DNA of 64,000 bases from an uncultured Veillonellaceae bacterium (GTDB taxonomy: Bacteria; Bacillota; Negativicutes; JARBTT01): the NCBI GenBank assembly GCA_963805085.1, contig CAWDTA010000002.1, positions 1,120,001 through 1,184,000 of the forward strand, read 5' to 3'. Made by a program: the position numbers and the translations under genes. The notes beneath the pieces were generated by a model. It was not told the origin of the DNA and did no database searches. It was given only the letters and a program-made list of their open reading frames with translations. Of this stretch, positions 3,053-49,178 are shown piece after piece (the first letter of the stretch is position 1; each line of letters begins with the position of its first letter).

Positions 3053-3067
3053 GAGGGAATATGAAAG

Positions 3068-8884: not shown

Positions 8885-9035
8885 GTTATTTTCTCATAAA
8901 AACAGTGAAGAATTGAATTCATTGCATCCCATTAATGAGTTGTTTAAAACTAATGATTCACTAGAAGGTTGGTCATAGATAACGTATGAAAATCGCTCAA
9001 TTAATTCGTTCGTTTAAAAAGAAGGAGGGGTATTA

Positions 9036-12000: not shown

Positions 12001-15000
12001 TTGAAAAAGTGTATGTGGGAGCAGAGAAAGTATTGGCCAAACTGTCTTTACCTAATGTTGTAACTAATACTGGAGACCAATATGTCTTGCACCCAAGTTT
12101 AATGGATTCTGCCTTACAGGCATCAATTGGGCTTTTAGGCGGCAATAATTTCAAACCGGTTTTGCCTTTCAATCTTCAAAATATAGAAATTATTAGTAAA
12201 TGCACGACGGTCATGTGGGCTCTGATTAGCTACAGTGAGGACAAAGCTAAAGGGCAAAGCCTGGACATTGATTTAAGTGATGAAAACGGAACAGTGTGCG
12301 TCAGGATGAGGGGATATTTAACAAGGGGGCTGGAAAGTGAAAGTTTGTTGAATAATATTGGAACACTATTGTTCTCTCCACGTTGGCAAGCACAAGAAGT
12401 TACCCGGGAAGCTACAGCTCCGGACTATGCCCAGCATTTGGCAGTACTTTGTGAACCGGATAATACTCTCCAGAAAAGCGTTGAAAGGCAGATGGAGGAT
12501 GTTCACTGTATTACTTTGCAATCCGTAGAAGAAGATATTGATAAAAGGTTCCAAACCTATGCTATTCAAGTGGTTGAGAAAATTAAGGACATTCTTGCAG
12601 ATAAGCCTAAAGGTAAGGTACTGTTGCAAATTGTGGTCACTAGCCAAAATGAACAGCAAGTTTTCTCCGGACTTTCGGGGCTTTTGAAAACAGCTCGGCT
12701 GGAAAATCCAAAAATCATAGGGCAGCTGATTGAAGTGGAAGCGGGAGAAGGCGGCGACGGGGTTGTAGAAAAACTTAAGGAGAACAGCAGGAGTCCAATT
12801 GATAGTCATATTAGTTATCAGGACGGAGCAAGGTATATCTCACGTTTCAGTCAATTGGAAATTCCCCAGGAACAAGTGGTTATCCCCTGGAAGGAACAGG
12901 GCATATATTTGATTACTGGAGGGGCTGGTGGACTAGGTCTTATATTTGCCAAAGAGATTGCTCAGCATGCTAAGGGGGCCACTCTGATCATTACAGGACG
13001 GTCTGCTTTAAGTGAAAACAAACAAGCAAAATTGCGAGAATTACAGTCGCTAGGAGTTCGGATTGAATACCGGCGGATTGATGTGACAGATAAAGAAGCG
13101 GTGTCAGCGTTAATCTATAGCATTCGGAATGAGTTTAAAGGCCTAAATGGCATTATTCACGGTGCCGGACTGATTCGGGATAACTTTATCATTAAAAAGA
13201 CCAAGGAAGAAATGCAAGAAGTTTTATTACCAAAGGTTACTGGGCTGGTAAACCTAGATCAGGCAAGTAGAGAACTGCCGTTGGACTTTTTAATTCTCTT
13301 TTCTTCAGCCGCCGGGGCTTTGGGCAATCCGGGACAGGTAGACTATGCAGCGGCTAATGCCTTTCTAAATGCCTATGCTAAGTACCGAAATTCACTGGTA
13401 GCCTTAACACAACGATACGGACAAACCATAGCAATGAATTGGCCGCTGTGGAAGGAAGGCGGGATGCGTGTTGATCAAGAAACCGAGAAGCTGTTAAGTA
13501 GCGAAGGTATTATCACGCTGCGGACCTCAAGCGGTATTAAGGCTCTGTATCAAGGAATGGGTTCCGGTGAAGAACAAGTCGTAGTAATAGAAGGCGATAT
13601 ACGGAGGATACAGGAGAGATTCTTAAGTACGCCGACAAAAACTGAATCACATCCTCCTAAAATGACGGTTTCGGAAATTGATACCGGAATACTGCGAGAA
13701 AAAACCCTATATCAGCTTGAAATGCTATTATCTAAAGTAACCCAGATAGATGCTGGAAAATTAGATGACGATGAACCTTTAGAGACTTATGGGATTGATT
13801 CGATCATCATTACTCAGCTCAATCATGAGCTGGCCGGAACCTTTGGAGAGATATCCAAAACACTATTTTATGAATATCAGACTTTGGGCGCCTTGGTAGA
13901 ATATTTTATTGCCGAACATACACAGACATGCAGGCAATGGACTGGACTAGTAACTGAAGTCCAGGCAAAGCCAGAAATATCGAAGAAACCTTTAACGGAT
14001 GTAGGCACTGATAATAAGGTTCCCGTTTTGACATCATGGGAAAAAGGCAAGAAGCAAAAAAGAAACTACCTTTGTACAAATTTAGATTCCAAAAACTTCG
14101 AACCTATTGCCATTATTGGTATGAGTGGGCGTTATCCGCAGGCAAAAACTCTCCAAGACTACTGGACGAATTTGGAATCCGGTAAGAATTGTATTACAGA
14201 AATTCCCCAAGAGCGCTGGCCGTTGGAGGGATTCTTCCAATCCGATAAACAAGAAGCTGTGGACCAAGGCAAAAGTTACAGTAAATGGGGCGGGTTTATA
14301 GATAACTTTGCGGATTTTGATCCCTTGTTTTTTAATATTTCGCTAAAGGATGCAAGAAATATGGATCCTCAGGAACGCTTATTTGTTGAATCCTGCTGGG
14401 CAGTGTTTGAGGATGCAGGATATACTAAGGAACAGCTTGCCGTAAAGTATAATGACCGAATCGGTGTTTTTGCGGGAATTACAAAAACAGGCTTTGAGTT
14501 ATACGGTCCTGATTTATGGAAGCAGGGTGAAAAAATATTTCCTCATACTTCGTTCAGCTCAGTGGCTAATAGGGTTTCCTACCTGCTGAATTTACATGGA
14601 CCTAGTATGCCGATTGATACAATGTGCTCTTCCTCGTTAACAGCGATTCATGAGGCTTGTGAACATCTCTATCGTGGAGAATGTGAAATGGCGATTGCGG
14701 GCGGCGTTAATTTGTATCTACATCCATTGAGTTATATTGGACTTTGTGCACAGCAAATGCTGTCTATAGATGGACAGTGCAAGAGCTTTGGACGAGGCGG
14801 AAACGGATTTGTGCCTGGTGAAGGGGTAGGAGCTATACTGCTGAAACGTCTATCCCAGGCGATAGCTGATGAAGATCATATTTACGCCGTTATCCGGGCA
14901 ACCAGCATTAACCATGGTGGAAAGACGAATGGTTATACGGTTCCCAATCCTATAGCCCAAGGGGAGATTGTCCGGGCTGTGCTGGATAAAGCAGGGGTAA

Positions 15001-18000
15001 ATGCCCGCGCAATCAGCTATATAGAAGCTCACGGTACGGGAACAGAACTTGGCGATCCGATTGAAATTACGGGATTAAGCCAGGCATTTGCTAAGGATAC
15101 CCAAGATACCCAGTTTTGTGCCATTGGCTCAGCAAAATCGAATATAGGTCATTTGGAAGCTGCCGCTGGGATTGCAGGAGTTACCAAGATTGTACTGCAA
15201 ATGCAACACAAAAAAATTGTTCCAAGCCTGCATGCCAAAGAGCTAAATCCTAATATCAATTTTGCCAAGACACCATTTGTAGTTCAACAAGATCTTGCGG
15301 AATGGAAACGACCAATAGTTGAGAGCAACGGAGTAAGTAAGGAATATCCAAGAATAGCCGGTATATCAGCTTTTGGTGCCGGAGGATCAAATGCTCACGT
15401 AGTGATTGAAGAATATATCCCGCAGGATACGGAGCGGTCTAACATTCTGATTGGTGAGCAGAGTCCTGCCATTATCGTATTGTCAGCAAAGGATGAAGAC
15501 CGTCTTAAAGCTAAGGTACAACAATTGCTCTCTGCGATTCAAAAACAAAAATTAAGTGATAATGATCTTGCCAATATCGCGTATACACTTCAGGTAGGGC
15601 GTGAAGCAATGGCAGAGCGCTTGGCTTTATTCGCAGGATCTATGAAAGAACTGGAAGAAAAACTAAAGGCATTTATAGCTGGTAAGAGTGGAATTGAAAA
15701 TTTGTATCAAGGTCAGGTCAAACGTAATAAAGAAACGCTTAATCTTTTTGCTGCAGATGAAGATTTGCAACAAGTAATCGATATTTGGGCCAGTAAAGGA
15801 AAATATGCTAAACTTTTAGATCTTTGGGTCAAGGGGCTAGTTTTTGACTGGAACAAGATTTATGAGGATGTCAAGCCTCGTCGAATCAGCCTGCCTACAT
15901 ATCCATTCGCAAGGGAACACTTCTGGATACCTAAAATTACCGATGATTTCCAAGTAACGCCGAAAAATCGACAAGGAAATGAGAAACGCAGCGCCTTGAT
16001 GTATCAAGGTGATCGTGTACAAGCATCAGAACCTTTAAAAGGCAGGCTGATTGCTTCTCCGCTGAAAGAAATGCAATTTGAATATATTATGAGTACTGAG
16101 AACTTTACTGAGCTTAGAGATAACCATAATGTGCTGCATGTTGGATATTATCAGGAAATATTGTGCGATGCTGTTAAGGCTAGTTTCAATACTAGCTCAT
16201 ATGTACTACATAATATTGAGTTCTTAACAGCTTTGAGGTTTGATGAAGATTCTGCCCGAGTTGTGAATCTGATCTTAAGTCCTGAAGATGAAAATGGTTT
16301 TATGAAGTTTCAGGTAAGTAGTCGGAAAACCGGGAAGAATAAATGGACGCTGCATGTAAAAGGAAGCCTTAAGATTAATAGGGATATTCAAGTTGATAAA
16401 TTGCCGGTTGAGCAATATCTTAATATTACCAAGGATGGGGAACAGTACACAGCCGACGAGTTTTACCAAAAAATATTTGAACAAGGTTTTCGTTTAGGTG
16501 ATAGTGTAAAATGGGTGGATCATGTATGGCATAGAAAGGGAGAAATTCTTGCCCGTTTTAGACCTTTCACTGAAATGGAGAAGTGGTGCAATTACTCTAT
16601 TGGGATTCATCCTGGTGTGCTTGATGCATGCGCACAACTTTTTGTTTTCGCCGGTCAGGAATGCCTGCCATCAGGTACCATCTTTATGGTGGTAGAAATG
16701 AAAGAATTCAGCTTTCATTGTGCAGGCAACAGGGATAAAGCTGTATGGTGCCATTTTGTGCTGGATAAAGATGGCCAGGATGGCGATTGTATACAAGGAA
16801 ACTATACGCTTTATGATGAAGATGGACTTATTCTGGCACAGGCGAGAGGAAAAAAAGTAAAAAAATTAAATATAAAAGGCTTAAAAACTATAGATCTGAA
16901 TCGTAGTCAAGCCGAAAATTTTAAGAAATCCTTATTGTCTGATGCAAATGATGGAAAATCATGTATGCAAGCTGAAGTATTGGAAGACTCATTGCGGCAG
17001 ATAATGGCTGAACAATTAGGTATGTTGCCGGAACAACTTGATACCGGTGAGTCACTGAGAGATTTGGGAATGGATTCAATTGCCGCCATGAACTTTAGAA
17101 GTATGGTTGAGAAGTCCTTGGGCACAAAGATTTCCGCGGAAGACTTACTGGAAGGACCGTGTATTAAGGAATTGGCTGCTACTTTGAATTCTCAATGGCA
17201 AAAATTGGATAAGGATGGCGAAGAACAAGAAAAAACTGAAATTGTTAAGAGTGAAGAGCTGGAGGATTCTTTGCGGCAACTAATGGCCGAACAATTAGGT
17301 ATGTTGCCAGAACAGCTTGACACTGGCGAGCCGCTGAGAGATTTGGGAATGGATTCAATTGCCGCTATGAACTTTAGAAATATGGTTGAGAAGTCCTTAG
17401 GTATAAAGATATCCGCGGAAGACTTACTGGAAGGACCGTGTATTAAGGAGTTGGCTACGATAATACAGACTGAATTACAAAATTCTGATCTTAAGCCTAA
17501 AAAATTGGCAACCGTACAGGAGCAATCAAAAGGGGCAAGTATATGGTATGCGCATAGAATTATCAATAAAAATGCTAAATTTAGACTCTTTTGTTTACCA
17601 TATGGCGGCGGGGGAGCCTCATTATATCGTGAATGGCAAGGAAAACTGCCGGATTATATTGAAGTATGTCCTATTCAGATGCCAGGTAAAGAAAACAGAA
17701 TAAAGGAAGTTCCTATTGACAATATTGATGACGCAGTAAATACGCTGGAAAAAGCTATCAAAACTGAATTAGATATTCCTTATGCCTTTTATGGGCATAG
17801 CTTGGGAGTACTAATTGGCTACAGACTATCTTACCGTTTATGGCAAACGGCAAAAAATAAACCTAGCCACTTCTTTGTGGGAGGTTTTAGCCGACCTGAG
17901 GCTATTCCTAATTTTAATCTTGGAAAGAGGCTTGCTATGTTAAAATCTAGAGGTTTTGACAGTATTCCCACTGTAAGTGAAATCGAAGCGTTACCAGCTG

Positions 18001-18341
18001 AACAGCTTGACTTCTTGGTGCACCAAATAGGGGGCATGGAAAATGTCGTTGTAGAGGACGACATAGCTAGGAAACTGATAGCGGCCGCTCTTTGTGATTT
18101 GAGAATTTGTGAGAGCTTTAAGTTTAAAGAGGAGCCTCCATTTGACGTACCGATTACTGTTTTTCACGGCATAAAGGATGAGCGTGTTCCGGTAGAGAGT
18201 ATGGAGGCATGGAAATTGAATACTACATCAGCCTTTAAACTCCATGTGCTACCAGGAAATCATTTCTTCCTAAATAAAGAGCAGTATCAAGATGAATTGA
18301 TGGCCTTTATTAAAGAAGATATAGATCTGCATATATCCTAA
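9036..18341 (+). CDS. terminal trans-AT PKS: ACP-KS-DH-KR-ACP-KS-(atypical hotdog)-ACP-ACP-TE
   Basis: RBS aaggagg; GIDS ACPs; two KS with DTMCSS/HGTGT/NIGH; DH HIVNGQRVLP; KR GGAGGLG and YAAAN; two GMDS ACPs; TE GHSLG...GNHFF. Confidence 0.95.
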   Translation: MNSKESLLAQQAEKTSCDGKKDSIEIESGQSPKPDFTEENKVVSAVGSQANMAFVSQVDQGILLEKTIYKLRGLFAEIIKLPIDRIDADEALEVYGIDSIMIIEFNKKLVNIFGELSKTLFFEYRTLETFAGYLIAHYSQDCVKWTGLVDQQRKRPEVDSAAVHSNEDLPVLTSLKASKKAGQNFTVKRPDKRTQEPIAIIGMSGRYPQAKDLNEYWKNLKEGKDCITEIPEERWSLEGFFNPDVQEAIAQGKSYSKWGGFVDGFADFDAFFFSIPPREAINIDPQERCFIESCWEVLEDAGYTKELLEKQYNRRVGIFAGINRTGFALYGPDLWKQGEKIFPYTQFGSVANRVSYLLNLQGPSMPIDTMCSSSLTAIHEACEHIHNGECEMAIAGGVTLYLHPSNYTQLCSLQMLSVDGQCKSFGQGGNGYVPGEGVGTVLLKRLSQAIADRDHIYAVIRGTGINHGGKTNGYTVPNPTAQGELIRTVLDKAGVDARAVSYIETHGTGTALGDPIEITGITQAFLKDTQKTQFCAIGSVKSNIGHLEAAAGIAGVTKIVLQMKHQKIVPSLHSKQLNPNIDFTKTPVVVQQELVDWKRPIIEINGEVKAYPRIAGISSFGAGGANAHVLIEEYIPDDHEDAQGMINNLDFAIIVLSAKNREQLKKQVQQLLAAIQEQQFSDNSLADMAYTLQIGREAMEERLAVAVRSIKELEEKLQGFLDDRDGIPDLYQGQVKRNKETLSIFKTDKELQEAMEKWIERGKYSQLMELWVKGLNFDWDKLYGEDKPRRISLPTYPFAKERYWVPEVVKKSSIITKASEGVVLHPLLQQNTSNFSGQRYSSIFSGQEFFLADHIVNGQRVLPGVAYLEMARAAIEQAEGLEAGEKRIGLKNIAWANPIVVNGQSVKVHIGLYPKENGEIAYEIYVGEDNAEPVIYSQGIAVFNPATEVPTLDLKSLQAQCSKGVLSSSECYDTFKAVGIEYGSAYKGVEKVYVGAEKVLAKLSLPNVVTNTGDQYVLHPSLMDSALQASIGLLGGNNFKPVLPFNLQNIEIISKCTTVMWALISYSEDKAKGQSLDIDLSDENGTVCVRMRGYLTRGLESESLLNNIGTLLFSPRWQAQEVTREATAPDYAQHLAVLCEPDNTLQKSVERQMEDVHCITLQSVEEDIDKRFQTYAIQVVEKIKDILADKPKGKVLLQIVVTSQNEQQVFSGLSGLLKTARLENPKIIGQLIEVEAGEGGDGVVEKLKENSRSPIDSHISYQDGARYISRFSQLEIPQEQVVIPWKEQGIYLITGGAGGLGLIFAKEIAQHAKGATLIITGRSALSENKQAKLRELQSLGVRIEYRRIDVTDKEAVSALIYSIRNEFKGLNGIIHGAGLIRDNFIIKKTKEEMQEVLLPKVTGLVNLDQASRELPLDFLILFSSAAGALGNPGQVDYAAANAFLNAYAKYRNSLVALTQRYGQTIAMNWPLWKEGGMRVDQETEKLLSSEGIITLRTSSGIKALYQGMGSGEEQVVVIEGDIRRIQERFLSTPTKTESHPPKMTVSEIDTGILREKTLYQLEMLLSKVTQIDAGKLDDDEPLETYGIDSIIITQLNHELAGTFGEISKTLFYEYQTLGALVEYFIAEHTQTCRQWTGLVTEVQAKPEISKKPLTDVGTDNKVPVLTSWEKGKKQKRNYLCTNLDSKNFEPIAIIGMSGRYPQAKTLQDYWTNLESGKNCITEIPQERWPLEGFFQSDKQEAVDQGKSYSKWGGFIDNFADFDPLFFNISLKDARNMDPQERLFVESCWAVFEDAGYTKEQLAVKYNDRIGVFAGITKTGFELYGPDLWKQGEKIFPHTSFSSVANRVSYLLNLHGPSMPIDTMCSSSLTAIHEACEHLYRGECEMAIAGGVNLYLHPLSYIGLCAQQMLSIDGQCKSFGRGGNGFVPGEGVGAILLKRLSQAIADEDHIYAVIRATSINHGGKTNGYTVPNPIAQGEIVRAVLDKAGVNARAISYIEAHGTGTELGDPIEITGLSQAFAKDTQDTQFCAIGSAKSNIGHLEAAAGIAGVTKIVLQMQHKKIVPSLHAKELNPNINFAKTPFVVQQDLAEWKRPIVESNGVSKEYPRIAGISAFGAGGSNAHVVIEEYIPQDTERSNILIGEQSPAIIVLSAKDEDRLKAKVQQLLSAIQKQKLSDNDLANIAYTLQVGREAMAERLALFAGSMKELEEKLKAFIAGKSGIENLYQGQVKRNKETLNLFAADEDLQQVIDIWASKGKYAKLLDLWVKGLVFDWNKIYEDVKPRRISLPTYPFAREHFWIPKITDDFQVTPKNRQGNEKRSALMYQGDRVQASEPLKGRLIASPLKEMQFEYIMSTENFTELRDNHNVLHVGYYQEILCDAVKASFNTSSYVLHNIEFLTALRFDEDSARVVNLILSPEDENGFMKFQVSSRKTGKNKWTLHVKGSLKINRDIQVDKLPVEQYLNITKDGEQYTADEFYQKIFEQGFRLGDSVKWVDHVWHRKGEILARFRPFTEMEKWCNYSIGIHPGVLDACAQLFVFAGQECLPSGTIFMVVEMKEFSFHCAGNRDKAVWCHFVLDKDGQDGDCIQGNYTLYDEDGLILAQARGKKVKKLNIKGLKTIDLNRSQAENFKKSLLSDANDGKSCMQAEVLEDSLRQIMAEQLGMLPEQLDTGESLRDLGMDSIAAMNFRSMVEKSLGTKISAEDLLEGPCIKELAATLNSQWQKLDKDGEEQEKTEIVKSEELEDSLRQLMAEQLGMLPEQLDTGEPLRDLGMDSIAAMNFRNMVEKSLGIKISAEDLLEGPCIKELATIIQTELQNSDLKPKKLATVQEQSKGASIWYAHRIINKNAKFRLFCLPYGGGGASLYREWQGKLPDYIEVCPIQMPGKENRIKEVPIDNIDDAVNTLEKAIKTELDIPYAFYGHSLGVLIGYRLSYRLWQTAKNKPSHFFVGGFSRPEAIPNFNLGKRLAMLKSRGFDSIPTVSEIEALPAEQLDFLVHQIGGMENVVVEDDIARKLIAAALCDLRICESFKFKEEPPFDVPITVFHGIKDERVPVESMEAWKLNTTSAFKLHVLPGNHFFLNKEQYQDELMAFIKEDIDLHIS

Positions 18342-18823
18342 TATTTGCCGAGACTAAATAAATTATTCGCAGCTTCGTTTTATCTGTAATTTCATGCCTA
18401 AGTGGAATTTCTCATCCCGGAAAATCGTATAGAAAATTTGAATGCTAATACAAATATATAGACCAACTGATTAAGGACAAAAAAGGCTAGAGGATGAAAT
18501 AGGTGTGAAAGCAGGACATTGTAAATCACAAAAAGAGCAAGAATCAAGTAGCTTAATAGGATGAATACTTAAGGCCCAGACCAAATCTTTTGGGGTATTC
18601 GATTATAGAAAAAAGAAGAGTGGTAAATGGAGATACCTGTGGATTTCATGAAAAATAAGGGTCTTTTGTTTAACCACTCTTCTTTGTTTTTGAAGATTTA
18701 GATTTGAATGATAACAGGAGGTGAAGGTTTATGTGACCTAATAACTTTAGAGTAAAGTATTCAATCGTTGCTAAATGAATGACAATTTTAGTATTTTCGA
18801 GAAAGTAGGAGGTGCGCAGTTTT

Positions 18824-19612
18824 ATGATGAACGTAAGTTTGGTATTAAGAAAAGAAATTTTAAATGGATGCAATACATTTACGGATTATTTCTCCATAAA
18901 ATTATCTGAAAAAAGCTACAAAGTTTCTTTGAATTTTTCTAAATTTAATAAGTTTGATGCAAGTTTAAACATAAAAAATCTTCTTCATGACGTTGAGCGT
19001 AAATATTTTGAGACTCTTAAATATAATCGAAGAATAAATAGTTTCCTTTTAGGAAGATATTCTGCTAAAAGAGCCATTACTGCATTAGTTGGTAATGAGA
19101 AAGATTTTACAAAAATTCTTATCAAAAAGGGAGTGTTTAATCAGCCAATTGTAGATTGTGAGACATCCAGTAATATACAGGTCAGTTTAAGCCATAGTGA
19201 TGACCTTGCAGCAGCAATAGCATTTAATGATATGCTGATTTTAGGAATTGATATTGAAAAAGCTAGTAGGCATATCAATCAAGAAGTGGAAGCAGTGTTA
19301 ACACAATGCGAAAGGGACCTTTCTTTTAAAGTTCCATGCTCATATAGAAATTTTCTGTTAATGATTTGGACAGTAAAGGAATCTCTTTCTAAGGTTCTTA
19401 AAACCGGGTTAACAGTACCTATGCGCATTTTAGAAGTAAGAAATATTGAAGAGCTTGAGGGATATTGCGTCAGCACTTTTACAAATTTTCCACAATATAG
19501 TACAGTGTCCTTTATAGTGGAAGATTATGTTTGCTCGATTACATTCCCAAAAAATGTTGAAATATATATAGACATTAATAGGATAAAGGATAATTTATAT
19601 AAGATTTTATAA
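18824..19612 (+). CDS. Sfp-type 4'-phosphopantetheinyl transferase
   Basis: VSLSHS, LGIDIE and WTVKESLSK motifs; RBS aggagg at 18807-18812 favours the ATG at 18824; adjacent to the PKS. Confidence 0.9.
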   Translation: MMNVSLVLRKEILNGCNTFTDYFSIKLSEKSYKVSLNFSKFNKFDASLNIKNLLHDVERKYFETLKYNRRINSFLLGRYSAKRAITALVGNEKDFTKILIKKGVFNQPIVDCETSSNIQVSLSHSDDLAAAIAFNDMLILGIDIEKASRHINQEVEAVLTQCERDLSFKVPCSYRNFLLMIWTVKESLSKVLKTGLTVPMRILEVRNIEELEGYCVSTFTNFPQYSTVSFIVEDYVCSITFPKNVEIYIDINRIKDNLYKIL

Positions 19613-21862: not shown

Positions 21863-23341
21863 TTAGATTATACATTCGCGACTCGAATAATTAGCGGCGA
21901 TTTTTTTCTCAGCATCCGTTAATAATCGTTTACGCAATACAACTTGCATTTCGTCAACGGCACGTGGAGTAGCAAGAATCTCAGCCAAGGAGGCATGGTT
22001 CGCTTGCATGGCAAGTCCGGCGGAATTCAGTGTAAATAGATTTTCCACTAAGTCAAATCTCGCTTCCGTCCAACCAACATACCAACTCCATTCCGTATAA
22101 TAAAGCCAGCTCTTTTCATTAAATGCCCGCACATGAGTTGGATCCTGCCATGCTCCACAAGACAAATCATAGGGAACATTAATTTTAAAAACACCTCCTA
22201 CTTTTAATAATTTCAAACACACGGTCATCGCCGTAATTAACTCCCTAATATGTTCTAAAACATGACTTGCAATAATCTCATCGAAGGAGTCTTCCTTGAT
22301 CGTTATTATGCCAAATCGTGCAGTTGCAACTTCCTTATTTAAAGGAAAATTATTACTTATGTCAGCAACGACATCAGGCTGCCAATACTGGTTTATATCA
22401 ATATTCAACCAATCTGGCCGAAAAAGCTTCCCACTGCCAAGGTTTATAATTGTTGGTAGCTGTTGTAATTCATTTTTAACAAGGGTTTTTTCAGTAATCA
22501 CGTCACGCAAAATATCGATTTCATTTCTTAAACTAAAACTTTCAAACCCATTCTTCTCCAATAGTTGGCGTTTCTCATCATTGTTAACAAGCTTGATACA
22601 GGTTTCAACAAGTTTATCATAAGGTACTAAAGCAACGGCTGTTCTTAAATCATCAGCAATTTCAGTGTTGTCATTGCATTCAGCGACAACTGCTTTATGA
22701 TTAGCTAATAAATAAGATATTCGAACAATCTCAAATATACTAGAAGCATAAAAATGAATATTAATGATTACTTTGGCCCGGGCAATAGCTACATCTCTTT
22801 CCTTTCCATATACACCAAATAAAGTAACAACAGTAAGCCCACTTTTTTTTAGCTCTTCCATAATTTTTTCACGCCTTACATTCATAGAACCATAAAATAA
22901 AACATCAATATCTTGGGGTGAAACTGGGGCGATGCAGGTCAACTCTGGTACATAACCGATTGGCACATAATATAAAAGATTTTTACAACCCATTTTTCTA
23001 TATTTTTCAATATTGCGTTTGCTATAATCCCATACAGTAAACCTCTTAAACAAAGGCAGCGTTGCAGCGTTAAGCATAGATTTCGAATCAAATTGTTCTA
23101 AATTATAAATAATTGAAGACAAAGGAATTTTATCAATCAAGTCTGCCGTTATAAGATGGATACCTAAGATAATATTAATATTGTCCATTGAAAAGTCGTT
23201 TTCTGTAATTATGATGTTATACCCTAGTCTTTCTATTCCATACCTTAGCATTGTTGCGACCTCTCGAAACCCATCGGAATGTTGATATCCCTGTGGACGA
23301 ATAATTACAATTTGGTAGGTAGTCAAACATACAGGTTCCAT
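21863..23341 (-). CDS. glycosyltransferase-like (GT-B/CgeB-like) domain fused to class I SAM methyltransferase
   Basis: N-terminal DIDVLFYGS...RAKVIINIH...FEIVRISYLL; C-terminal INLGSG, ASHVLEH, LKVGGVF, QDPTHVR (Methyltransf_11-like). Confidence 0.75.
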   Translation of the reverse strand: MEPVCLTTYQIVIIRPQGYQHSDGFREVATMLRYGIERLGYNIIITENDFSMDNINIILGIHLITADLIDKIPLSSIIYNLEQFDSKSMLNAATLPLFKRFTVWDYSKRNIEKYRKMGCKNLLYYVPIGYVPELTCIAPVSPQDIDVLFYGSMNVRREKIMEELKKSGLTVVTLFGVYGKERDVAIARAKVIINIHFYASSIFEIVRISYLLANHKAVVAECNDNTEIADDLRTAVALVPYDKLVETCIKLVNNDEKRQLLEKNGFESFSLRNEIDILRDVITEKTLVKNELQQLPTIINLGSGKLFRPDWLNIDINQYWQPDVVADISNNFPLNKEVATARFGIITIKEDSFDEIIASHVLEHIRELITAMTVCLKLLKVGGVFKINVPYDLSCGAWQDPTHVRAFNEKSWLYYTEWSWYVGWTEARFDLVENLFTLNSAGLAMQANHASLAEILATPRAVDEMQVVLRKRLLTDAEKKIAANYSSRECII

Positions 23342-23566
23342 TTCAACACCTCATACCTTTTGGATATATCTATGTTAATCGTTTTAAGTATATGACTATA
23401 TTTAGCCATGTAGTCATATTGAGCGGAGATTTAAGGAATATATTGGTTGGCTTTCAAAACTTAACTAGTACACAAAAATTATATATCAATTCTGTTTCAC
23501 GTCGTTGTCACTCTATGCGTATTATAGGGTGATAACATTTTTTTTTGAAAAAGGAGGCTAATTATT

Positions 23567-24268
23567 ATGTCAGATAAAGATGAAGAACGTTATGGATGTC
23601 ATGGATGTCATGGATATAATGAGTGTAATGAGTGTAATGAGTGTAATGAGTGTAATGAGTGTAATGAGTGTAATAAATTTTCAACAGCATGTTTTATGAT
23701 CCCGGAACCAGGTGCTCAAGGAGCCACCGGAGCCACTGGACCTGCGGGTAGCTCTACTGGAGCAACAGGGCCAACAGGAGCAACAGGACTAACAGGAGCA
23801 ACAGGACTAACAGGAGCAACAGGCTTAACTGGTGATACGGCCCAAATAAGCGGGAGGGAAATTCAGTTACAAAATCCAGCAGTAGTATCTGTTGCATCCG
23901 GAGCACCTGTTTTGTTTGACACAACAGTAAGCGTTCAGTCACTTTTTATTGCATATAACGCATTGACAGGCACGATAACCATTACGGAGACAGGCGTTTT
24001 CTATATTAATTGGTGGGTATCAGTTGATGGGATGGAAGGCGGAGTAGATTTAGTGCCGACATTTTCCATAATTACTTCTGAAGGCGATAATGTAAGAGCA
24101 TCAAGTCCGATCATAACAGGACAATTGAGTGGAAATGCTTTAATTGAAGTTGTCGCCACCCCAATAAGCCCGGTGACTTTACAACTTGTAAATGCTACTG
24201 ATGCAACCATAGGCTATGGTGCAACGCCAATTAAGGCAGATTTAACAATTTTTAATGTAACTTTTTAA
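23567..24268 (+). CDS. short collagen-like protein with Cys-rich N-terminus and BclA/BclB-type C-terminal domain
   Basis: RBS aaggagg; (GCH)2 and (NEC)6; short Gly-X-Thr tract; beta-rich C-terminus ([18 protein letters not shown]). Confidence 0.85.
23618..23671 (+). repeat. 9-bp tandem repeat (aatgagtgt)x6 encoding NEC
   Basis: Six exact units read directly from the sequence. Confidence 0.95.
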
Positions 24269-24390
24269 TTTATAACCCATAGAAACTGCTGATTTGACAA
24301 GTCAAAATATAATAGGAAAATTAACAAGAATAGAAAGAGTCATGTAGATATATTGAACATGACCCTTTTCATAATATATGGCACATTGTG

Positions 24391-28258
<3,868 letters not shown>

Positions 28259-28274
28259 CAAAGTTACCTGTCTA

Positions 28275-28310
28275 AACAAGAGTTGGAAGCTAAAACTTCC
28301 AACTCTTGTT
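28275..28310 (+). terminator. stem-loop after collagen gene
   Basis: aacaagagttggaag / cttccaactcttgtt perfect stem. Confidence 0.6.
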
Positions 28311-28449
28311 ATGTTATTTCGTAATGAGATTCACTGTAGCGCGAATAACGACGAATTTGTTTTTGTAGAAAATGGAAGTGTATTTTTTATTAATAAACAA
28401 TGCCACCAATGAATATATTTGTAATATATTCCGGAGGAGGTATTGAAAA

Positions 28450-29562
28450 ATGAATGAATTGGAACAAAATTCAGCATCAGCAATAACCATCAGTCTATGT
28501 ATGATTGTAAAAAATGAAGCAGCAACGATTGAGCGTTGTTTACGATCAGTAGCTAGCGCCACTGACGAAATCATAATTGTTGATACAGGCTCTACCGATC
28601 AAACAAAAGAAATCGTCCGTCAATTTACTGATAAAATTTATGATTTTCCGTGGATAGATGACTTTGCGGCTGCGCGCAATTTCGCTTTTAGTCACGCATC
28701 GCAAGAGTATATTCTCTGGTTGGATGCCGATGACGTTCTATTGTCAAACGATTTACAAAAATTGCTACTGTTAAAACAGAATGCTGACGGAACAGTAGAC
28801 TCCTATACCATGAATTACAATGTATCCTTTGACGAAGCTGGCAATGTTGTTTCAACCTTGGGAAGGAATCGGCTTGTCAAACGGTCAAAACATTTTCAAT
28901 GGATTGGACCCGTTCATGAATGCCTAGTAGTTGGTGGGAAGATAGCTAATATGGATATCAGTGTAACGCATAAAAAGGAACATCACGACACTTACGACCG
29001 CAACCTGAATATCTATGAAAATCGCCTTGCAAAAGGTGAAACCTTTTCACCAAGGGATTTATATTACTATGCCAATGAACTAAACGATCACCAAAGGTAC
29101 GAAAAAGCCATTGAATATTATCGAAAAGCTTTAGATACTCAGTTATGCTGGGTCGAAGATAATATTTCCATTTGCGGAAAACTGGCCGACTGTTACAGTG
29201 TTCTTGGCGATGACCAAAATAAGTTAAACTATACGTATCTTTCCTTCAATTACGATACACCACGAGCAGAATTTTGCTGTCGCCTAGGCTTCCATTTTCT
29301 AGGCTTAAAGAGATATCAACAAGCTATATTTTGGTATACACTCGCGATTAACCTGCAAAAGCCTAAAGATCCTCTAGCTATGTTAAACAATGCCTGTTGG
29401 ACGTGGCTCCCCCATCTTCAGCTCTGTGTATGCTACGACAGAATCGGCAAATATGAATTAGCGTGCAAGCACAACGAAATAGCAGCAGGTTTTGTACCAG
29501 AGCATTCTGGAATTTTGTACAATCGCACATATTTCGAAAACCTCTTTAATAAAACTACGTAG
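28450..29562 (+). CDS. GT2 glycosyltransferase with C-terminal TPR repeats
   Basis: ISLCMIVKNE, VDTGSTD, DFAAARN, WLDADD, VHE motifs; helical TPR-like C-terminus. Confidence 0.92.
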   Translation: MNELEQNSASAITISLCMIVKNEAATIERCLRSVASATDEIIIVDTGSTDQTKEIVRQFTDKIYDFPWIDDFAAARNFAFSHASQEYILWLDADDVLLSNDLQKLLLLKQNADGTVDSYTMNYNVSFDEAGNVVSTLGRNRLVKRSKHFQWIGPVHECLVVGGKIANMDISVTHKKEHHDTYDRNLNIYENRLAKGETFSPRDLYYYANELNDHQRYEKAIEYYRKALDTQLCWVEDNISICGKLADCYSVLGDDQNKLNYTYLSFNYDTPRAEFCCRLGFHFLGLKRYQQAIFWYTLAINLQKPKDPLAMLNNACWTWLPHLQLCVCYDRIGKYELACKHNEIAAGFVPEHSGILYNRTYFENLFNKTT

Positions 29563-29627
29563 TCCATTCACCTAACGTAAGACCTCTCCTGTTACTACAT
29601 TGAATACTTCCTGTTTTTGCCGAAGAA

Positions 29628-29712
29628 GCTACTGGTTGAACTGGCGGAAGGATTGCATTTGATTCCGCAGACGATACTGCGCCGCTTACTGGAGCTCATT
29701 CCTACACGTTAA
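29628..29712 (+). pseudogene. internally deleted relic of collagen gene C-terminal region
   Basis: The 5' part matches ~27854-27892 and the 3' part matches ~28136-28175. Confidence 0.75.
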
Positions 29713-29788
29713 AGGTAGTGTGTACTAAAAGATTCATTTCCTGACATTCCTTTGGTCCTTTATAAAAAAGAAAGAGGTGATAAGCTAA

Positions 29789-30553
29789 ATGGAATCTACT
29801 GAATTTGTAACCATTGCCATTTTGGCAAAAGACAAAGCGCATGTATTACCTTTGTATCTTAATTTAATTGAGAATCAGACTTATCCCGCTGACAAAATCA
29901 AGCTTTATATACGTACAAACAATAATCATGATCAAACCGCAGTTTTGCTTGAGCAGTGGATAGAAAAAGTTAAGGATCGGTATTCAGAAATCTATTACGA
30001 TTCGAGCGATGTTGCAGACCCCATCCATGAATACAGTCCACATGAATGGAATGCATTGCGATTCCAAGTGTTGGGGCGGCTGCGCCAAGAGTCAGTAGAA
30101 TGGGCGCGAGCAAAAGGAACTCACTATTTCGTAGCTGATTGCGATAATTTTATTGTTCCTAAAACACTGGAAATGCTTCTTAATACCGGTTTGCCAGTCA
30201 TTGGACCCTTGCTAAGAAATGGTGATGATCCAGCCAGCTTATATTCTAATTACCACTACGTTACTGATGAAAATGGTTACTATAAAGGCTCGAAATTATA
30301 TTTCGAAGTATTATACCAGACAATTAAGGGGTTAATTGCGGTGGAAGTAATCCATTGCACTTATTTAATTCGGAATGATGTTTTAGATTTTGTCAGTTAT
30401 GATGATAAAAGTGGTCGGCATGAATATGTAATTTTTAGTGATACCTTAAGAAAGTCAGGTATACCCCAATATATTGACAATCGTCATAATTATGGAAAGC
30501 TGACTTTCTGCAATACAGCGGAAGATTTCCAGTCCAAGAATATAACAATATAG
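29789..30553 (+). CDS. GT-A fold glycosyltransferase resembling COLGALT/PLOD collagen-modifying domains
   Basis: QTYPADKIKLYIRTNNNHDQT, VADCDNF (DxD), LPVIGPLL, YSNY...ENGYY, VIHCTYLI, IDNRHNYGKL. Confidence 0.7.
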   Translation: MESTEFVTIAILAKDKAHVLPLYLNLIENQTYPADKIKLYIRTNNNHDQTAVLLEQWIEKVKDRYSEIYYDSSDVADPIHEYSPHEWNALRFQVLGRLRQESVEWARAKGTHYFVADCDNFIVPKTLEMLLNTGLPVIGPLLRNGDDPASLYSNYHYVTDENGYYKGSKLYFEVLYQTIKGLIAVEVIHCTYLIRNDVLDFVSYDDKSGRHEYVIFSDTLRKSGIPQYIDNRHNYGKLTFCNTAEDFQSKNITI

Positions 30554-30670
30554 TCCAATTTATTGGGTTCAGACCCAATGAATCAAGCGCTTGTCAAATC
30601 TAACAATAAGCAATATAGTATGGAAGAAATAAAGAAATAAAGAAATAATCCCGGAATTCGGAGGCTGCCA

Positions 30671-31336
30671 ATGAACGCAAATAAAATTTGTTTTGTAACC
30701 TGCGTAAACGATGAGAAAATGTACCAAAAATGTCTTTGGGATATTCAGCACCTTGAAGTTCCCGTTGGTTATGAGATTGAAACGCTGGCTATAAGAAAAG
30801 CTGTCTCAATGACTGGTGGTTACAATGACTCCCTACATCGGACAGATGCAAAGTATAAGGTGTATTTACATCAAGACGTATATATTATTAACAAGAACTT
30901 TCTTCAAGAAGTATTACATTTGTTTAAACATCCTCAAATCGGTATGATTGGTGTTGCTGGCTGCACGCAAATTCCTTTTAGTGGAATTTGGTGGGAAGCA
31001 GAGAATCTCTATGGGAAAGTTTATGATAGCCATGCGGGAATCATGGGATTACTTGCTTTTCATGAAGTGGAGAATGAATATAAAGAAGTGCAAGGTATTG
31101 ATGGGTTAATTATGATCACCCAATTTGATATAGCATGGCGAGAAGATATTTTCACTGGATGGCATTTTTATGACTTATCACAAAGTAGAGAGTTCAGCCG
31201 CGCTGGATATAAGGTCGTAATTCCCCGACAGTCGGAACCCTGGTGTATTCACGATTCTGGAGTGGCAAACATAAGTGGATATCATCATTATCGCCAAGTG
31301 TTTTTAAATGAATATTGCCCAAAACAATTTCTTTAA
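30671..31336 (+). CDS. GT2-like glycosyltransferase (Glyco_tranf_2_5/StrF-like)
   Basis: ICFVTCVNDE, KYKVYLHQD, GMIGVAG, WHFYD motifs. Confidence 0.85.
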   Translation: MNANKICFVTCVNDEKMYQKCLWDIQHLEVPVGYEIETLAIRKAVSMTGGYNDSLHRTDAKYKVYLHQDVYIINKNFLQEVLHLFKHPQIGMIGVAGCTQIPFSGIWWEAENLYGKVYDSHAGIMGLLAFHEVENEYKEVQGIDGLIMITQFDIAWREDIFTGWHFYDLSQSREFSRAGYKVVIPRQSEPWCIHDSGVANISGYHHYRQVFLNEYCPKQFL

Positions 31337-31400
31337 GCCAATATGCTGAATCTGTCATAAGATAATAGATATCAAAGGTGTGTTACGTAATGGCAAAAAG

Positions 31401-31553
31401 ATGCTTTTACAGAATCGGACACCACAAATACATATTGATCCCAATGAATTAGCTGCAGCAGAATGGTTTGAACGCAGTGAAATTCCTGATGATTCAATGA
31501 AAGGCAGCATAGCCCATGAAATGATTGAAGCCTTTCGAATACAACTATGTTAA
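31401..31553 (+). pseudogene. C-terminal fragment of NADH pyrophosphatase (NudC-like)
   Basis: IHIDPNELAAAEWFERSEIPDDSMKGSIAHEMIEAF resembles a NudC C-terminus; no Nudix box upstream. Confidence 0.6.
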
Positions 31554-31991
31554 TAGAAATTTAAGAACAAGTTATTCAGGTTCGGGAAATTGCCTGCGCT
31601 TTGAGTAATCGGATTTACTCTGTTGCTTCCCAAAAGAGAGTCCTTCTAGAGCTGGATTCAACCTTGCTTTCATCTTATCATGGTGGTGCATATAAGAAAA
31701 AATATCAAAATCAGTTTAGATGAAATTTAGAATGGAGAAGATTCGAAAAAAATCAAGTAGCAAAAGTGGGGAAGAACGCTTTACCTGATAGTAAAAACTC
31801 TATAAATAATGAATCATCAGCAGCTTTCTATGATAAAATTAAAAATCATAGAAAGTTATTTTTTTTCTTAGGTTGATCCAATTGGTGCTATGTCTTTGCA
31901 TGTATGAGATAACTGGTTGAGATTACGAGCGTGAGAAAGTTATTTTTTGCGTAGATTCAGATATGAATTGAATTAGAAGAGGTGTATAAAT

Positions 31992-33812
31992 ATGGAGTCG
32001 ATTTTGTTTATTGCGCCGTTTCAAGAAATAGCCGATATTGCTAAACGCGTTATTTTGGAAATGGAACTATCCATACCCGTTATCGTTGCCAATAATGAAA
32101 CAGCCTTGCAGGCAATCGAAGAATTTCCCAACGCATCGGTGCTCATAAGTCGTGGTGGTACAGCGAATGATTTGAAAGTTTTACCGGAAAAGACGATTGT
32201 TGAAATCAATACATCGTTTACGGATATATTAATGGTTATAGAAAAAGCTTTGCGCAAAGGATATAAACGAATTGCTATCGTAACGAAGGATAATATTATT
32301 GATAATATAGAAACAGATTTTAATTTTCTAGGTACTAAAATACAAATTCGACCGTGTCATAGCGACCTTGACATAAAAAATAGGGTGCAGTCCCTGGGAA
32401 AAGATGGGGTTGACTGTATTATCGGCTGTAAACGGGCGGTTGAAGCGGCAAATGCTTGTGGTTTGCACTATGCGTATATTGAATCGGGCGAAATATCGAT
32501 ACGCAAAGCGATTAGCGAAGCAAAAAATATCGTTTATTCTAACGGGGTGGCAGAGCTTCAGTTGGAGCGGATGAATGCAGTCATTAATAATATACAAGAA
32601 GGCGTTGTGATTCTTGATCGTGAACAAAAACCGATATTTTCTAATAAAATTGCCAACGAAATATTAAGTGGTGAAAGTGAGTACGACTGGCGGAATAATA
32701 TACTAAAGAAGATGGCCGGATTTGACAAGGAGAAAATTGTTGAAATCGAGGGCAATCGAATTTTGTTAAAAAGTATCCCGCTAGAGGTTTATAACCAATA
32801 CAAAAATGATGTGTGGATTTTTGAGGAAATAAGCCGTATAGAAAAAGCAGAAAGAAAAATAAGGTTATCTATGTATAACAAAGGTTTCTATGCAAAGTGG
32901 CATTTTGAGGATATTATAACAGCTTCGCCAGTGATGAAACATGTTGTGATGACAGCCCAAAAATTTGCGCTGGCGAATTCTAACATCTTGATTTATGGTG
33001 ATACAGGAACAGGTAAAGAAGGCTTGGCTCAAAGCATACACAATGCAAGCGCCCGAGCGAAACAGCCGTTTATATCGGTGAATTGCGCATCGTTGCCACC
33101 TAGCTTGATTGAAAGCGAATTATTTGGCTATGCAGAAGGTGCTTTTACAGGGGCTCGTAAATCAGGGAAGCGTGGACTTTTTGAGCTGGCACATAAGGGG
33201 ACTATTTTTCTTGATGAAATTGGTGAAATGCCATTGGATGTGCAGAGTCGATTGCTGCGTGTATTACAAGAACGCGAAATCATGCGTATTGGTGATGATA
33301 GAATTATGCCGCTAGATATTCGTGTTATTTGTGCAACGAATAAAGATTTATTAAAATTATCTCAAACTGGAAAATTTCGTTTTGATCTGTACTACAGGAT
33401 TAATGTGCTGAAACTGCAATTACCTTCGCTAAAAAAACGGCGTGAAGATATTCTGCCGATTTTTTATCATTATTTAAAAAAGTACCATACAGATCGAAGT
33501 AATATTCCACAATTGGATGCGAAAAGTGAAAAGCGTTTACTGGACTATAGTTGGCCGGGAAATATTCGAGAATTAAAAAATATAGCAGAAGTCTTGGCTT
33601 TTGAGAGTGGAAATATTGATGCGGCGCAGGTGGCAGAAATTTTAGCGCCGAGTGCTGAGGGGCAGCAAGAAGGAATTTACGTATCGACAGATCTTTCTTT
33701 AAAAGAAATAGAGCGAGAAATCATCCAGCATTTATTAAAAAAGCATACAGCAGAAGAAGTTTGTGCAAAAATGGGAATAAGTCGTGTGACTTTGTGGAGA
33801 AAAACAAAATAG
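31992..33812 (+). CDS. sigma54-dependent activator, PrpR-like (PrpR_N-PAS-AAA+-HTH)
   Basis: GDTGTGKE, GAFTGA, FLDEIGE, WPGNIREL and Fis-type HTH (MGISRVTLWRK). Confidence 0.93.
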   Translation: MESILFIAPFQEIADIAKRVILEMELSIPVIVANNETALQAIEEFPNASVLISRGGTANDLKVLPEKTIVEINTSFTDILMVIEKALRKGYKRIAIVTKDNIIDNIETDFNFLGTKIQIRPCHSDLDIKNRVQSLGKDGVDCIIGCKRAVEAANACGLHYAYIESGEISIRKAISEAKNIVYSNGVAELQLERMNAVINNIQEGVVILDREQKPIFSNKIANEILSGESEYDWRNNILKKMAGFDKEKIVEIEGNRILLKSIPLEVYNQYKNDVWIFEEISRIEKAERKIRLSMYNKGFYAKWHFEDIITASPVMKHVVMTAQKFALANSNILIYGDTGTGKEGLAQSIHNASARAKQPFISVNCASLPPSLIESELFGYAEGAFTGARKSGKRGLFELAHKGTIFLDEIGEMPLDVQSRLLRVLQEREIMRIGDDRIMPLDIRVICATNKDLLKLSQTGKFRFDLYYRINVLKLQLPSLKKRREDILPIFYHYLKKYHTDRSNIPQLDAKSEKRLLDYSWPGNIRELKNIAEVLAFESGNIDAAQVAEILAPSAEGQQEGIYVSTDLSLKEIEREIIQHLLKKHTAEEVCAKMGISRVTLWRKTK

Positions 33813-40487: not shown

Positions 40488-40530
40488 AAAAATAAAGCAC
40501 CACATTCTCATCCCAGGAATGCGGTGCTCT
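40488..40530 (-). terminator. expression-platform terminator of TPP riboswitch
   Basis: agcacc(g/a)cattc stem followed by a U-tract on the minus strand. Confidence 0.75.
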
Positions 40531-40537
40531 TTATTGA

Positions 40538-40624
40538 ATCGCTTCCCTACGCTGGCATTATCCAGACAGGTAAAGGGTAATGGAATTTATTCCATTTCTC
40601 AGCCGATTTGGCACCCCTAGCATA
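40538..40624 (-). ncRNA. TPP riboswitch
   Basis: Minus strand reads ctaggggtgcc...gctgaga...acccttt acctg tctggataatgccagcgtaggga. Confidence 0.93.
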
Positions 40625-40682
40625 TTTTATATTTCGTATTGTATCTATTTTACTACTTAATACTTATCAATTGCAATTTAAA

Positions 40683-49102: not shown

Positions 49103-49178
49103 TGGAGCTGATAATAGGATTTGAACCTACGACCTACTCATTACGAATGAGTTGCTCTACCAGCTGAGCTATATCAGC
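49103..49178 (-). tRNA. tRNA-Thr(CGT)
   Basis: gctgata/tatcagc acceptor stem, D arm, actca-ttCGTaa-tgagt anticodon arm, ggttcaaatcc T loop, encoded CCA; terminator at 49063-49092. Confidence 0.96.

Follow-up and report, generated by a model that had tools for sequence, protein, structure and literature searches.

A stand-alone bacterial homologue of the non-catalytic COLGALT1 GT1 and LH3 accessory domains, encoded beside Gly-X-Thr collagen-like genes

In the collagen-modifying enzyme COLGALT1, the GT1 domain binds Ca2+ and UDP-galactose (UDP-Gal) as structural cofactors and is non-catalytic, with catalysis residing in the C-terminal GT25-type GT2 domain; the nearest structural relative of GT1 is the inactive accessory (AC) domain of LH3 (PMC12003778, in its passages on GT1). 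In the BLAST searches described in that 2025 paper, GT1 matched sequences of vertebrates, invertebrates and giant viruses, while bacterial matches came with the GT2 domain only (PMC12003778, passage on these searches). Here we describe a bacterial protein of 254 amino acids (aa) that is related to both of these non-catalytic domains. It is encoded by an ATG-started open reading frame (ORF) at 29789..30553 of a 64,000-nucleotide stretch, the window, of contig CAWDTA010000002.1 (assembly GCA_963805085.1, forward-strand positions 1,120,001 to 1,184,000) from an uncultured Veillonellaceae bacterium, and lies downstream of two collagen-like genes. On the strength of its homology, fold, conserved donor- and metal-site residues, gene linkage and domain fusions, we put at roughly 55% the probability that the protein is an active glycosyltransferase (GT) elongating a Thr-linked glycan on a collagen-like spore-surface protein.

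On the bacterial side, BclA of Bacillus anthracis, which is glycosylated with rhamnose and anthrose, is an analogue at the level of the system. In C. difficile, the Gly-X-Thr exosporium protein BclA3 is encoded beside its glycosyltransferase SgtA, as the collagen-like genes here are encoded beside glycosyltransferase genes; SgtA consists of a GT domain (residues 1-255) and tetratricopeptide repeats (TPR; 262-358) and transfers beta-O-GlcNAc from UDP-GlcNAc onto Thr of BclA3 collagen-repeat peptides, and unidentified enzymes extend or cap the glycan (PMC7157674, passages on this system). The correspondence has its limits, in that SgtA matches the upstream neighbour of our gene and not the 254-aa protein, and in that a COLGALT-GT1-like enzyme is not reported in those passages (PMC7157674).

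Judged from its sequence and predicted fold, the 254-aa protein is a true homologue of the GT1/AC domain family, and the similarity covers the whole domain. A phmmer search of all Protein Data Bank (PDB) chains aligns residues 7-239 with COLGALT1 residues 14-252, i.e. GT1 (E 1e-25), followed by the LH3/PLOD3 accessory domain (residues 276-494, E 9e-8) and mimivirus R699 (E 5e-3). With a family profile built from 27 members, the corresponding values are 1.6e-44 (positions 4-246), 7e-17 and 7.5e-11; the nine distinct PDB sequences found at E<=0.01 all come from COLGALT1, LH3 and R699, and no further PDB protein, generic GT2 or Mnn9 included, reaches that value. The AlphaFold2 (AF2) model (pLDDT 93.7, pTM 0.91) gives the same order in Foldseek: COLGALT1 first (template-modelling (TM) score 0.84-0.89, root-mean-square deviation (rmsd) 2.0-2.6, 26% identity; TM 0.86 and rmsd 2.0 for 9evj), then LH3 (TM 0.71-0.78) and R699 (0.64-0.67), with the generic GT-A enzymes RmlT, SpsA, TarP and TarS (0.56-0.62) and Mnn9 (0.71) ranked below at E values of 1e-8 to 1e-10. 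By TM value the model is nearer to COLGALT1 GT1 and LH3 AC than to generic GT-A enzymes. An earlier, sequence-only reading of this ORF had proposed a resemblance to COLGALT1 GT1 and to the lysyl hydroxylase accessory domain, and these searches show that the proposal was correct and specific. The program-made ORF listing of the window likewise bears out its position and length, the intact DxD (D117-C118-D119) and every motif quoted: YPADKIKLYIRTNNNHDQT, RQES, YFVADCDNFIVPKTL, PVIGPLL, YSNYHYVTDENGYY, IHCTYLI, RKSGIPQYIDN and YGKL.

Family databases are less informative. The top Pfam match of the protein is Anp1 (PF03452; E 6e-4, 19.7 bits against a cut-off of 28.8), and Glyco_tranf_2_4 (PF13704) scores 18.6 bits against 27.5; some relatives do reach the Anp1 cut-off (28.8-47.3 bits), and a precomputed Pfam column gives PF13704 for all 120 relatives listed. 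The literature on PF13704, a brown-alga paper included, held nothing relevant to function, and NCBIfam and PHROGs return zero matches. The affinity to Anp1/Mnn9 (GT62, yeast GDP-mannose mannosyltransferases) extends to the fold, the Mnn9-GDP-Mn structure being the one that gives the TM of 0.71, the highest outside the group of collagen enzymes, but the Pfam score lies under the cut-off and the sequence searches of the PDB do not recover Mnn9. From the sequences, the ORF is not a chance one, since it has 609 relatives of similar length at E<=1e-3 and an exhaustive HMMER scan finds 769 cluster representatives at the same threshold, 324 of them at E<=1e-30.

The protein resembles COLGALT1 (9evj, 8zgc, 9u7h) in its GT-A fold, its DxD, most of the UDP-Gal and metal contacts and its link to collagen-type substrates, but it is not a COLGALT. 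In COLGALT1, GT1 is joined to a catalytic GT25 domain (PMC12003778, domain description), whereas the 254-aa protein is a single domain with no GT25 after it; there is no Lys among the 306 triplets of the neighbouring collagen gene that could serve as a Gly-X-Lys hydroxylysine acceptor, and the acceptor would be the repeat Thr, with a GDP-sugar as the likely donor. Seven near-invariant microbial positions and the uracil-reading Tyr126 of COLGALT1 also differ between the two. The LH3/PLOD3 AC domain (6fxk and others), the second-best match in sequence and fold, is likewise a GT-A domain within a collagen-modifying enzyme, but it is the inactive middle domain of a three-domain enzyme and only its C-terminal half aligns strongly (profile 110-239). 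The mimivirus collagen glucosyltransferase R699 (9dyt; PMC9546862 and PMC12279948, in the portions that describe it) matches the profile with residues 325-457, in its C-terminal part, and the model with a Foldseek E of 1e-12; it is distant (17-18% identity), and nearer giant-virus relatives (41-57%) exist in IMG/VR. The idea that the ORF encodes a prokaryotic counterpart of animal or giant-virus collagen glycosylation enzymes thus stands as to homology, but the homology is to the non-catalytic GT1 and not to the catalytic GT25 domain; because the animal domains it resembles are the non-catalytic ones, the protein is not a counterpart of the catalytic galactosyltransferase. It is correctly described as standing alone in the window, but many of its relatives carry the domain fused to others.

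The genes around the ORF are arranged on the plus strand in the order 233-aa collagen-like gene, giant collagen-like gene, GT2-TPR gene, 254-aa gene, Glyco_tranf_2_5 gene and sigma-54 activator gene (Table 1). Read in its correct frames, the giant gene contains 306 Gly-X-Y triplets in which X is A (225), E (73), V (4), L (3) or Q (1) and Y is T (302), Q (3) or P (1), the Q and P residues lying at frame breaks; globular domains flank the repeat at both ends, the N-terminal one resembling the C-terminal part of the 233-aa neighbour. In the assembly the gene is spread over three frames, with seven frame changes in the same direction (at about 25643, 25840, 26298, three within 26387-26421, and 26933), each of which fits one missing base in a short run, such as GCAACA read as GCACA. 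These breaks look like long-read consensus error rather than the marks of a pseudogene, and an intact protein would be about 1,200 aa long. In the 233-aa protein, a Cys-rich (NEC)n N-terminus is followed by about 15 G-X-T triplets and then by a globular C-terminal domain; the protein matches BclA_C weakly (E 6e-3, 16.8 bits, below the cut-off). Its start (23567-23700) reads GCHGCHGY(NEC)x6 N, has no family match and may be a cross-linking or metal-binding anchor. The absence of Lys and Pro ascribed earlier to the collagen repeat holds for the giant gene, where Pro is effectively absent; this short neighbour does contain Pro in the few triplets that it has.

A decayed relic of a collagen-like gene lies within the 226-bp spacer upstream of the 254-aa gene and comprises the junction of the repeat with the C-terminal domain and the gene end. 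In blastn, 29673-29712 matches 28136-28175 (92.5% over 40 nt, E 2e-13) and 29628-29683 matches 27854-27909 (78.6% over 56 nt, E 4e-10); translated, the relic gives EATG*TGGRIAFDSADDTAPLTGAHSYTLK, and it contains a stop as well as an internal deletion. Small insertions that differ among relatives' contigs are seen next to it, at 29713-29724.

The association with collagen-like genes recurs in relatives. We collected 44 genomic loci by a pattern scan, with one genome per species, and scored a collagen run where at least eight Gly-X-Y triplets, mostly with Thr at Y, lie no more than 10 kb from the family gene. Such runs are present at 17 of the 44 loci (39%), compared with 124 of 4111 20.75-kb windows (3.0%) of the window's own genome, so that the co-occurrence with Gly-X-Thr genes anticipated by the sequence-only reading is seen, and a picture of generic GT2 or Anp1 matches only, with homologues unlinked to collagen genes, is not. 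The runs are found at 11 of 20 Bacillota loci, at six of 24 other bacterial loci (including Parachlamydiales L026 and Babeliales L025 and L033) and at five of 79 viral loci; 17 of 44 is probably a lower bound, because at several loci the contig itself ends in such a run. The window's genome also has other genes of this type: a repeat at C1:315937-332592 with 1292 and 558 consecutive Gly-X-Y triplets (74% Thr at Y) extends over more than 16 kb in one frame, and smaller Gly-X-Thr genes lie at C2:1619407, C2:2105055 (beside a small acid-soluble spore protein (SASP) gene) and C5:117739.

The gene immediately upstream of the 254-aa gene encodes a 370-aa protein with the GT2-then-TPR layout of SgtA, GmaR and SunS (Pfam Glycos_transf_2, E 2e-25, followed by TPR). 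It scores 73.6 bits with the NCBIfam SunS family, under the cut-off, and its best PDB matches are GmaR (E 9e-28), which is the Listeria flagellin O-GlcNAc transferase, and the peptide glycosyltransferases ThuS (chain 7msk, E 5e-17) and SunS (E 1e-14). Relatives of this GT2-TPR protein are encoded at eight of the 20 Bacillota loci (E<=1e-8), with weaker matches in L018, L019 and L025, and the two enzymes also occur as one polypeptide: P0277 (631 aa) consists of GT2, TPR and then a family domain with 80% identity to the 254-aa protein, and similar fusions are P0169, P0133 and P0143. The 254-aa protein itself has no Pfam match to TPR or another peptide-binding module, nor to PF00535, and so differs from the SgtA/GmaR/SunS layout. 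A predicted complex of the two proteins scores 0.01 against a mark of 0.32, which is not evidence either way.

Because the neighbour is of GT2-TPR type, and because of the linkage and the fusions, we assign the first sugar to the neighbour and the extension to the 254-aa protein. Under this proposal the three glycosyltransferases encoded just downstream of the Gly-X-Thr (BclA-type) surface proteins would act on these: the GT2-TPR enzyme would place the first sugar on Thr of the repeats, the 254-aa enzyme would extend the glycan by a GDP-mannose-derived sugar, either mannose itself or a 6-deoxyhexose (D-rhamnose or fucose, for example), and the Glyco_tranf_2_5 enzyme, possibly with a methyltransferase, would complete it. 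Direct first glycosylation of Thr by the 254-aa protein, with Thr as one of the two acceptors suggested earlier, is less likely, the initiating step being more probably that of the neighbour. Glyco_tranf_2_5 relatives are encoded in the flanks of L009, L012, L016 and L017. The candidate methyltransferase is a divergently transcribed 492-aa protein with Pfam matches to Methyltransf_23/12/11 of E 7e-5 to 2e-4, around or below the cut-offs; its role as a glycan-capping enzyme is speculative. We also note that 383 nt inside the Glyco_tranf_2_5 gene (30858-31242) are skipped in a contig from a relative in a peat RNA library, which may represent a deletion variant of the third glycosyltransferase in that relative.

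The acceptor could instead be something other than collagen, such as a spore-coat, exosporium or envelope polysaccharide, an S-layer or another glycoconjugate, with the collagen linkage reflecting shared surface-glycan islands. We regard this as rather unlikely, although 27 of the 44 genomic and 74 of the 79 viral loci have no collagen run in the flanks examined, and although in many relatives, from Bradyrhizobium, Methylobacter and others, the domain is one of several in a very large protein that combines multiple glycosyltransferases (GT4, GT25, GT11 among its domains) with sulfotransferase and methyltransferase domains and has the look of a polysaccharide builder; at L005, the family gene is accompanied by genes for PMT_2, GT2, an acetyltransferase and a methyltransferase. 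Gly-X-Thr genes are enriched (39% vs 3%), and this is seen again in three phyla that are far apart; the partner, whether fused or adjacent, is of the TPR-bearing type that modifies proteins or peptides; and the cassette sits directly behind collagen genes with a collagen relic in its upstream spacer, all of which speak for a collagen-like acceptor.

Whether the 254-aa protein is an enzyme at all was considered by mapping the COLGALT1 ligand contacts (PMC12003778, section 10) through HMMER alignments and scoring their conservation over 111 relatives. COLGALT1 L59, R61, D91, W135 and R139 correspond to L12, K14, N44, W87 and R91, and V143, R147, D166, D168 and D265 correspond to L95, R99, D117, D119 and E212; Y126, which reads the uracil carbonyl, falls on P78, a variable position. 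L12, K14, W87, R91, L95, R99, D117, D119 and E212 are kept in 98-111 of 111 relatives, so that, with the exception of Tyr126, the DxD and the nucleotide-sugar contacts of GT1 are present. Fifteen residues are invariant in all 111 (K14, N44, D48, W87, R99, S102, D117, D119, N120, P140, H156, Y192, Y204, Q227 and G236), D230 is kept in 103, and the E212 position is E or D in 110. Human GT1 retains the donor-holding residues but replaces S102, H156, Y192, Y204, S217, Q227 and D230 by A, W, F, F, A, M and C, respectively, as one would expect had the animal pseudo-enzyme lost an acceptor or catalytic site that is retained in the microbial proteins.

The same data bear on the possibility that the protein is a pseudo-glycosyltransferase, binding nucleotide sugar and metal structurally and serving as a scaffold or substrate presenter for its neighbours. 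Both solved relatives are non-catalytic (PMC12003778, passages on GT1 and AC), fusions of the family domain to a second glycosyltransferase domain (GT2; GT25 in the COLGALT order; GT4) are very common, and the donor-site residues shared with GT1 are the most conserved ones. We nonetheless judge such a role improbable. The inactive human domain has lost several residues that all 111 microbial members share, family identity across Bacillus, Paenibacillus and Sporomusaceae is 64-98%, and in some cases the family domain is the sole glycosyltransferase available to its context. At L004 and L010, the family gene lies directly behind gmd and is the only glycosyltransferase gene within 4 kb; the fusion P0303 joins Gmd (Pfam E 6e-150) to the family domain; and P0276 (83% identity), P0278 and P0282 (from a chlamydial metagenome-assembled genome, MAG) join it to an S-adenosylmethionine (SAM) methyltransferase, in each case with no other glycosyltransferase domain. 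The 254-aa protein therefore probably does not share the silent role of GT1 and AC, and we favour an active, metal-dependent GT-A glycosyltransferase.

The donor of this putative enzyme is more likely a GDP-mannose-derived sugar than UDP-Gal, as suggested by the gmd and manC context, the Gmd fusion, the weak Anp1/Mnn9 affinity and the lack of conservation at the uracil-reading position. A true gmd (at least 50% identity to the L004 gene) abuts the family gene at L004, L006, L008, L009, L010, L011 and Babeliales L038, and manC abuts it or lies nearby at L001, L003, L008 and L017; together, gmd and/or manC are found at nine of 20 Bacillota loci. L009 and L011 have the whole set of collagen gene, gmd, family gene and GT2-TPR gene. 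Away from the cassette, a polysaccharide cluster of the window's genome contains manC, a reductase-like gene and gmd (621.7 bits, which exceeds the TIGR01472 cut-off). That the 254-aa protein glycosylates the collagen repeat directly, on Thr instead of hydroxylysine, with UDP-hexose as in COLGALT1, is in our view very improbable: homology to a collagen-modifying enzyme, adjacency to repeat genes and UDP-Gal binding by GT1 favour it, but the homologous animal domain is not the catalytic one, a GT2-TPR protein-glycosylating enzyme is encoded next door and fused in relatives, the protein has neither TPR nor another peptide-binding module, and the context favours GDP-mannose-derived donors.

Several observations weigh against an elongating enzyme for collagen-like spore proteins. 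Among the relatives, only COLGALT1 GT1 and the LH3 accessory domain have been characterised, and both are non-catalytic; no assayed family member was found in the open-access literature searched. Since the inactive human domain retains D206 as well as E212 (aligned with D265), sequence alone does not single out a catalytic base. Neither Pfam nor NCBIfam assigns the protein to a family above threshold. At the loci counted above, most flanks are free of collagen runs, and the 3% background is that of one genome, with Paenibacillus genomes possibly carrying more collagen genes. Neither gmd nor manC lies beside the cassette in the window, the genome's gmd being about 1 Mb away. Finally, searches of the genome, which is 83% complete, recovered neither Spo0A_C nor SpoIVA; either they are in the missing 17% or the lineage is unusual.

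The family is widespread. Named relatives with 64-82% identity occur in Bacillus, Cohnella, Paenibacillus, Peribacillus, Propionispora, Sporomusa, Dendrosporobacter, Anaerospora and Anaeroselena; the loci outside Bacillota come from amoeba-associated Chlamydiota (Protochlamydia, Parachlamydiales, Rhabdochlamydia) and Dependentiae/TM6/Babeliales, from Pseudolysobacter, other Pseudomonadota and MAGs. IMG/VR contains 172 stretches with relatives at 41-57% identity, many on giant-virus MAG contigs, compared with 26% identity to human COLGALT1. The nearest ESM Atlas clusters are mostly labelled 'Viruses' (Uroviricota, Nucleocytoviricota) together with Bacillota, which we take as a lead only; the phage label is not supported by tblastn, since a search of 50,697 records of isolated phages finds no match to the protein. 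There is one family copy in the window's genome, and the gene is present in four of 40 nearer relatives and in none of 400 other evenly sampled genomes of its phylum (E<=1e-20).

A quick IQ-TREE maximum-likelihood search was run on 111 distinct bacterial and viral rows from 122 loci (matches of at least 220 aa, with identical and stop-containing rows dropped); COLGALT and PLOD sequences are not part of this tree. The window groups with 19 Bacillota loci in a single clade (SH-aLRT 98), within which branching departs from taxonomy: the window lies beside Bacillus arachidis, and Paenibacillus thalictri beside Sporomusa. Three viral rows are sister to this clade (support 91), with amoeba-associated bacteria nearby (87). 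The family copies of L041 and L043, both on contigs filed as Bacteroidota MAGs, fall inside giant-virus clades; L043 (filed as Flavobacteriaceae) carries an Rpb2-type RNA polymerase subunit, MutS and an AAA protein, L041 (Bacteroidetes) has no Pfam matches, and both are probably mis-binned giant-virus contigs. The stand-alone relatives outside Bacillota (L021-L036) are 277-325 aa long, with an N-terminal hydrophobic extension resembling a signal or anchor, and the Bacillota proteins begin directly at the first beta-strand, which suggests that the two groups have different cellular locations. The family domain is followed by GT25 in seven of 49 long relatives scanned (P0124, P0170, P0210, P0211, P0214, P0220 and P0241), including an 1882-aa Bradyrhizobium protein, and since such bacterial proteins exist, the COLGALT domain order is not an animal invention. 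Another fusion, in L040 (an uncultured Pseudomonadota), is a 685-aa protein of GT4 and family domain encoded in a row of four GT4 genes.

The genome that contains the window is 4.2 Mb in five contigs, with 37% GC. Its three SASP genes and six GerA genes lead us to regard the organism as an endospore former; by our reading of the sequences, an RND pump-like protein and an SLH-like one are also encoded in the window, which suggests a diderm, spore-forming member of the Bacillota. Peat metatranscriptome contigs from a relative, compared as assembled contigs with neither depth nor uncovered parts used, cover 27900-28268, 28477-28833, 28956-29485 and 29479-30858, the last of which spans the whole 254-aa ORF. 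This is a weak hint that the relative's cassette is expressed, and carry-over of DNA is possible. A scan of 23200-32100 for sigma-70 promoters and terminators was uninformative, with 18 promoter-like sites against 15.2 expected. At the left end of the window (2-19612), three very large ORFs (1016, 1938 and 3101 aa) and, after them, a 4'-phosphopantetheinyl transferase gene (Pfam ACPS, E 4e-14) probably make up a polyketide synthase/non-ribosomal peptide synthetase (PKS/NRPS) cluster.

Table 1. Features of the collagen and glycosyltransferase region, with other annotated features of the window.
Feature	Coordinates	Strand	Evidence
492-aa protein, weakly methyltransferase-like in one region; its gene is divergent from that of the small collagen protein	21863..23341	-	Pfam
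Small BclA-like collagen protein, 233 aa	23567..24268	+	Pfam Collagen, E 6e-5
Giant Gly-X-Thr collagen-like gene, presumed acceptor	24663..28258	+	ORFs, triplet count
GT2 + TPR protein glycosyltransferase (GmaR/SunS/SgtA type), 370 aa	28450..29562	+	Pfam, PDB
Decayed 3'-end remnant of a collagen-like gene	29628..29712	+	blastn
Putative stand-alone GT-A glycosyltransferase, homologue of COLGALT1 GT1 and PLOD accessory domain	29789..30553	+	ORF, phmmer, profile, AF2, Foldseek
Glyco_tranf_2_5 glycosyltransferase, third of the cassette, 221 aa	30671..31336	+	Pfam PF13712, E 1.3e-87
TPP riboswitch	40527-40628	-	65 bits
tRNA	49106-49178	-	

The enzyme class is an ordinary one; what is new is the family itself, the association with collagen-like genes that it shows in bacteria and giant viruses, and its kinship with two pseudo-enzyme domains of animals. 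In the open-access literature searched, bacterial GT1/AC homologues and their link to collagen-like genes are not described. The alignments point to a large bacterial and giant-virus family homologous to GT1 (E 1e-25 to 1e-44), often encoded beside collagen-like genes, in which activity is probably retained, and this offers a testable origin for two puzzling pseudo-enzyme domains and, in the 254-aa protein, a soluble model for an ancestral active site. It also provides a candidate elongating enzyme and a candidate GDP-sugar donor for BclA-type glycans, for which in C. difficile only the initiating SgtA is defined (PMC7157674, passages on that system). Because the family is common to spore formers, Chlamydiota, Dependentiae and giant viruses and yet turned up in none of the 400 other genomes sampled from the phylum of the window, it is clearly an example of a mobile glycosylation module. 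More tentatively, and as a possibility that we hold to be on the unlikely side, the silent animal GT1 and AC domains may descend from an active microbial family that already decorated collagen-like helices through GDP-mannose-derived Thr-glycans and spread horizontally among endospore formers, amoeba-dwelling bacteria and giant viruses. If so, part of the collagen glycosylation toolkit would be older than animals and of microbial or viral origin, and the bacterial order of family domain followed by GT25 would be the direct precursor of COLGALT.

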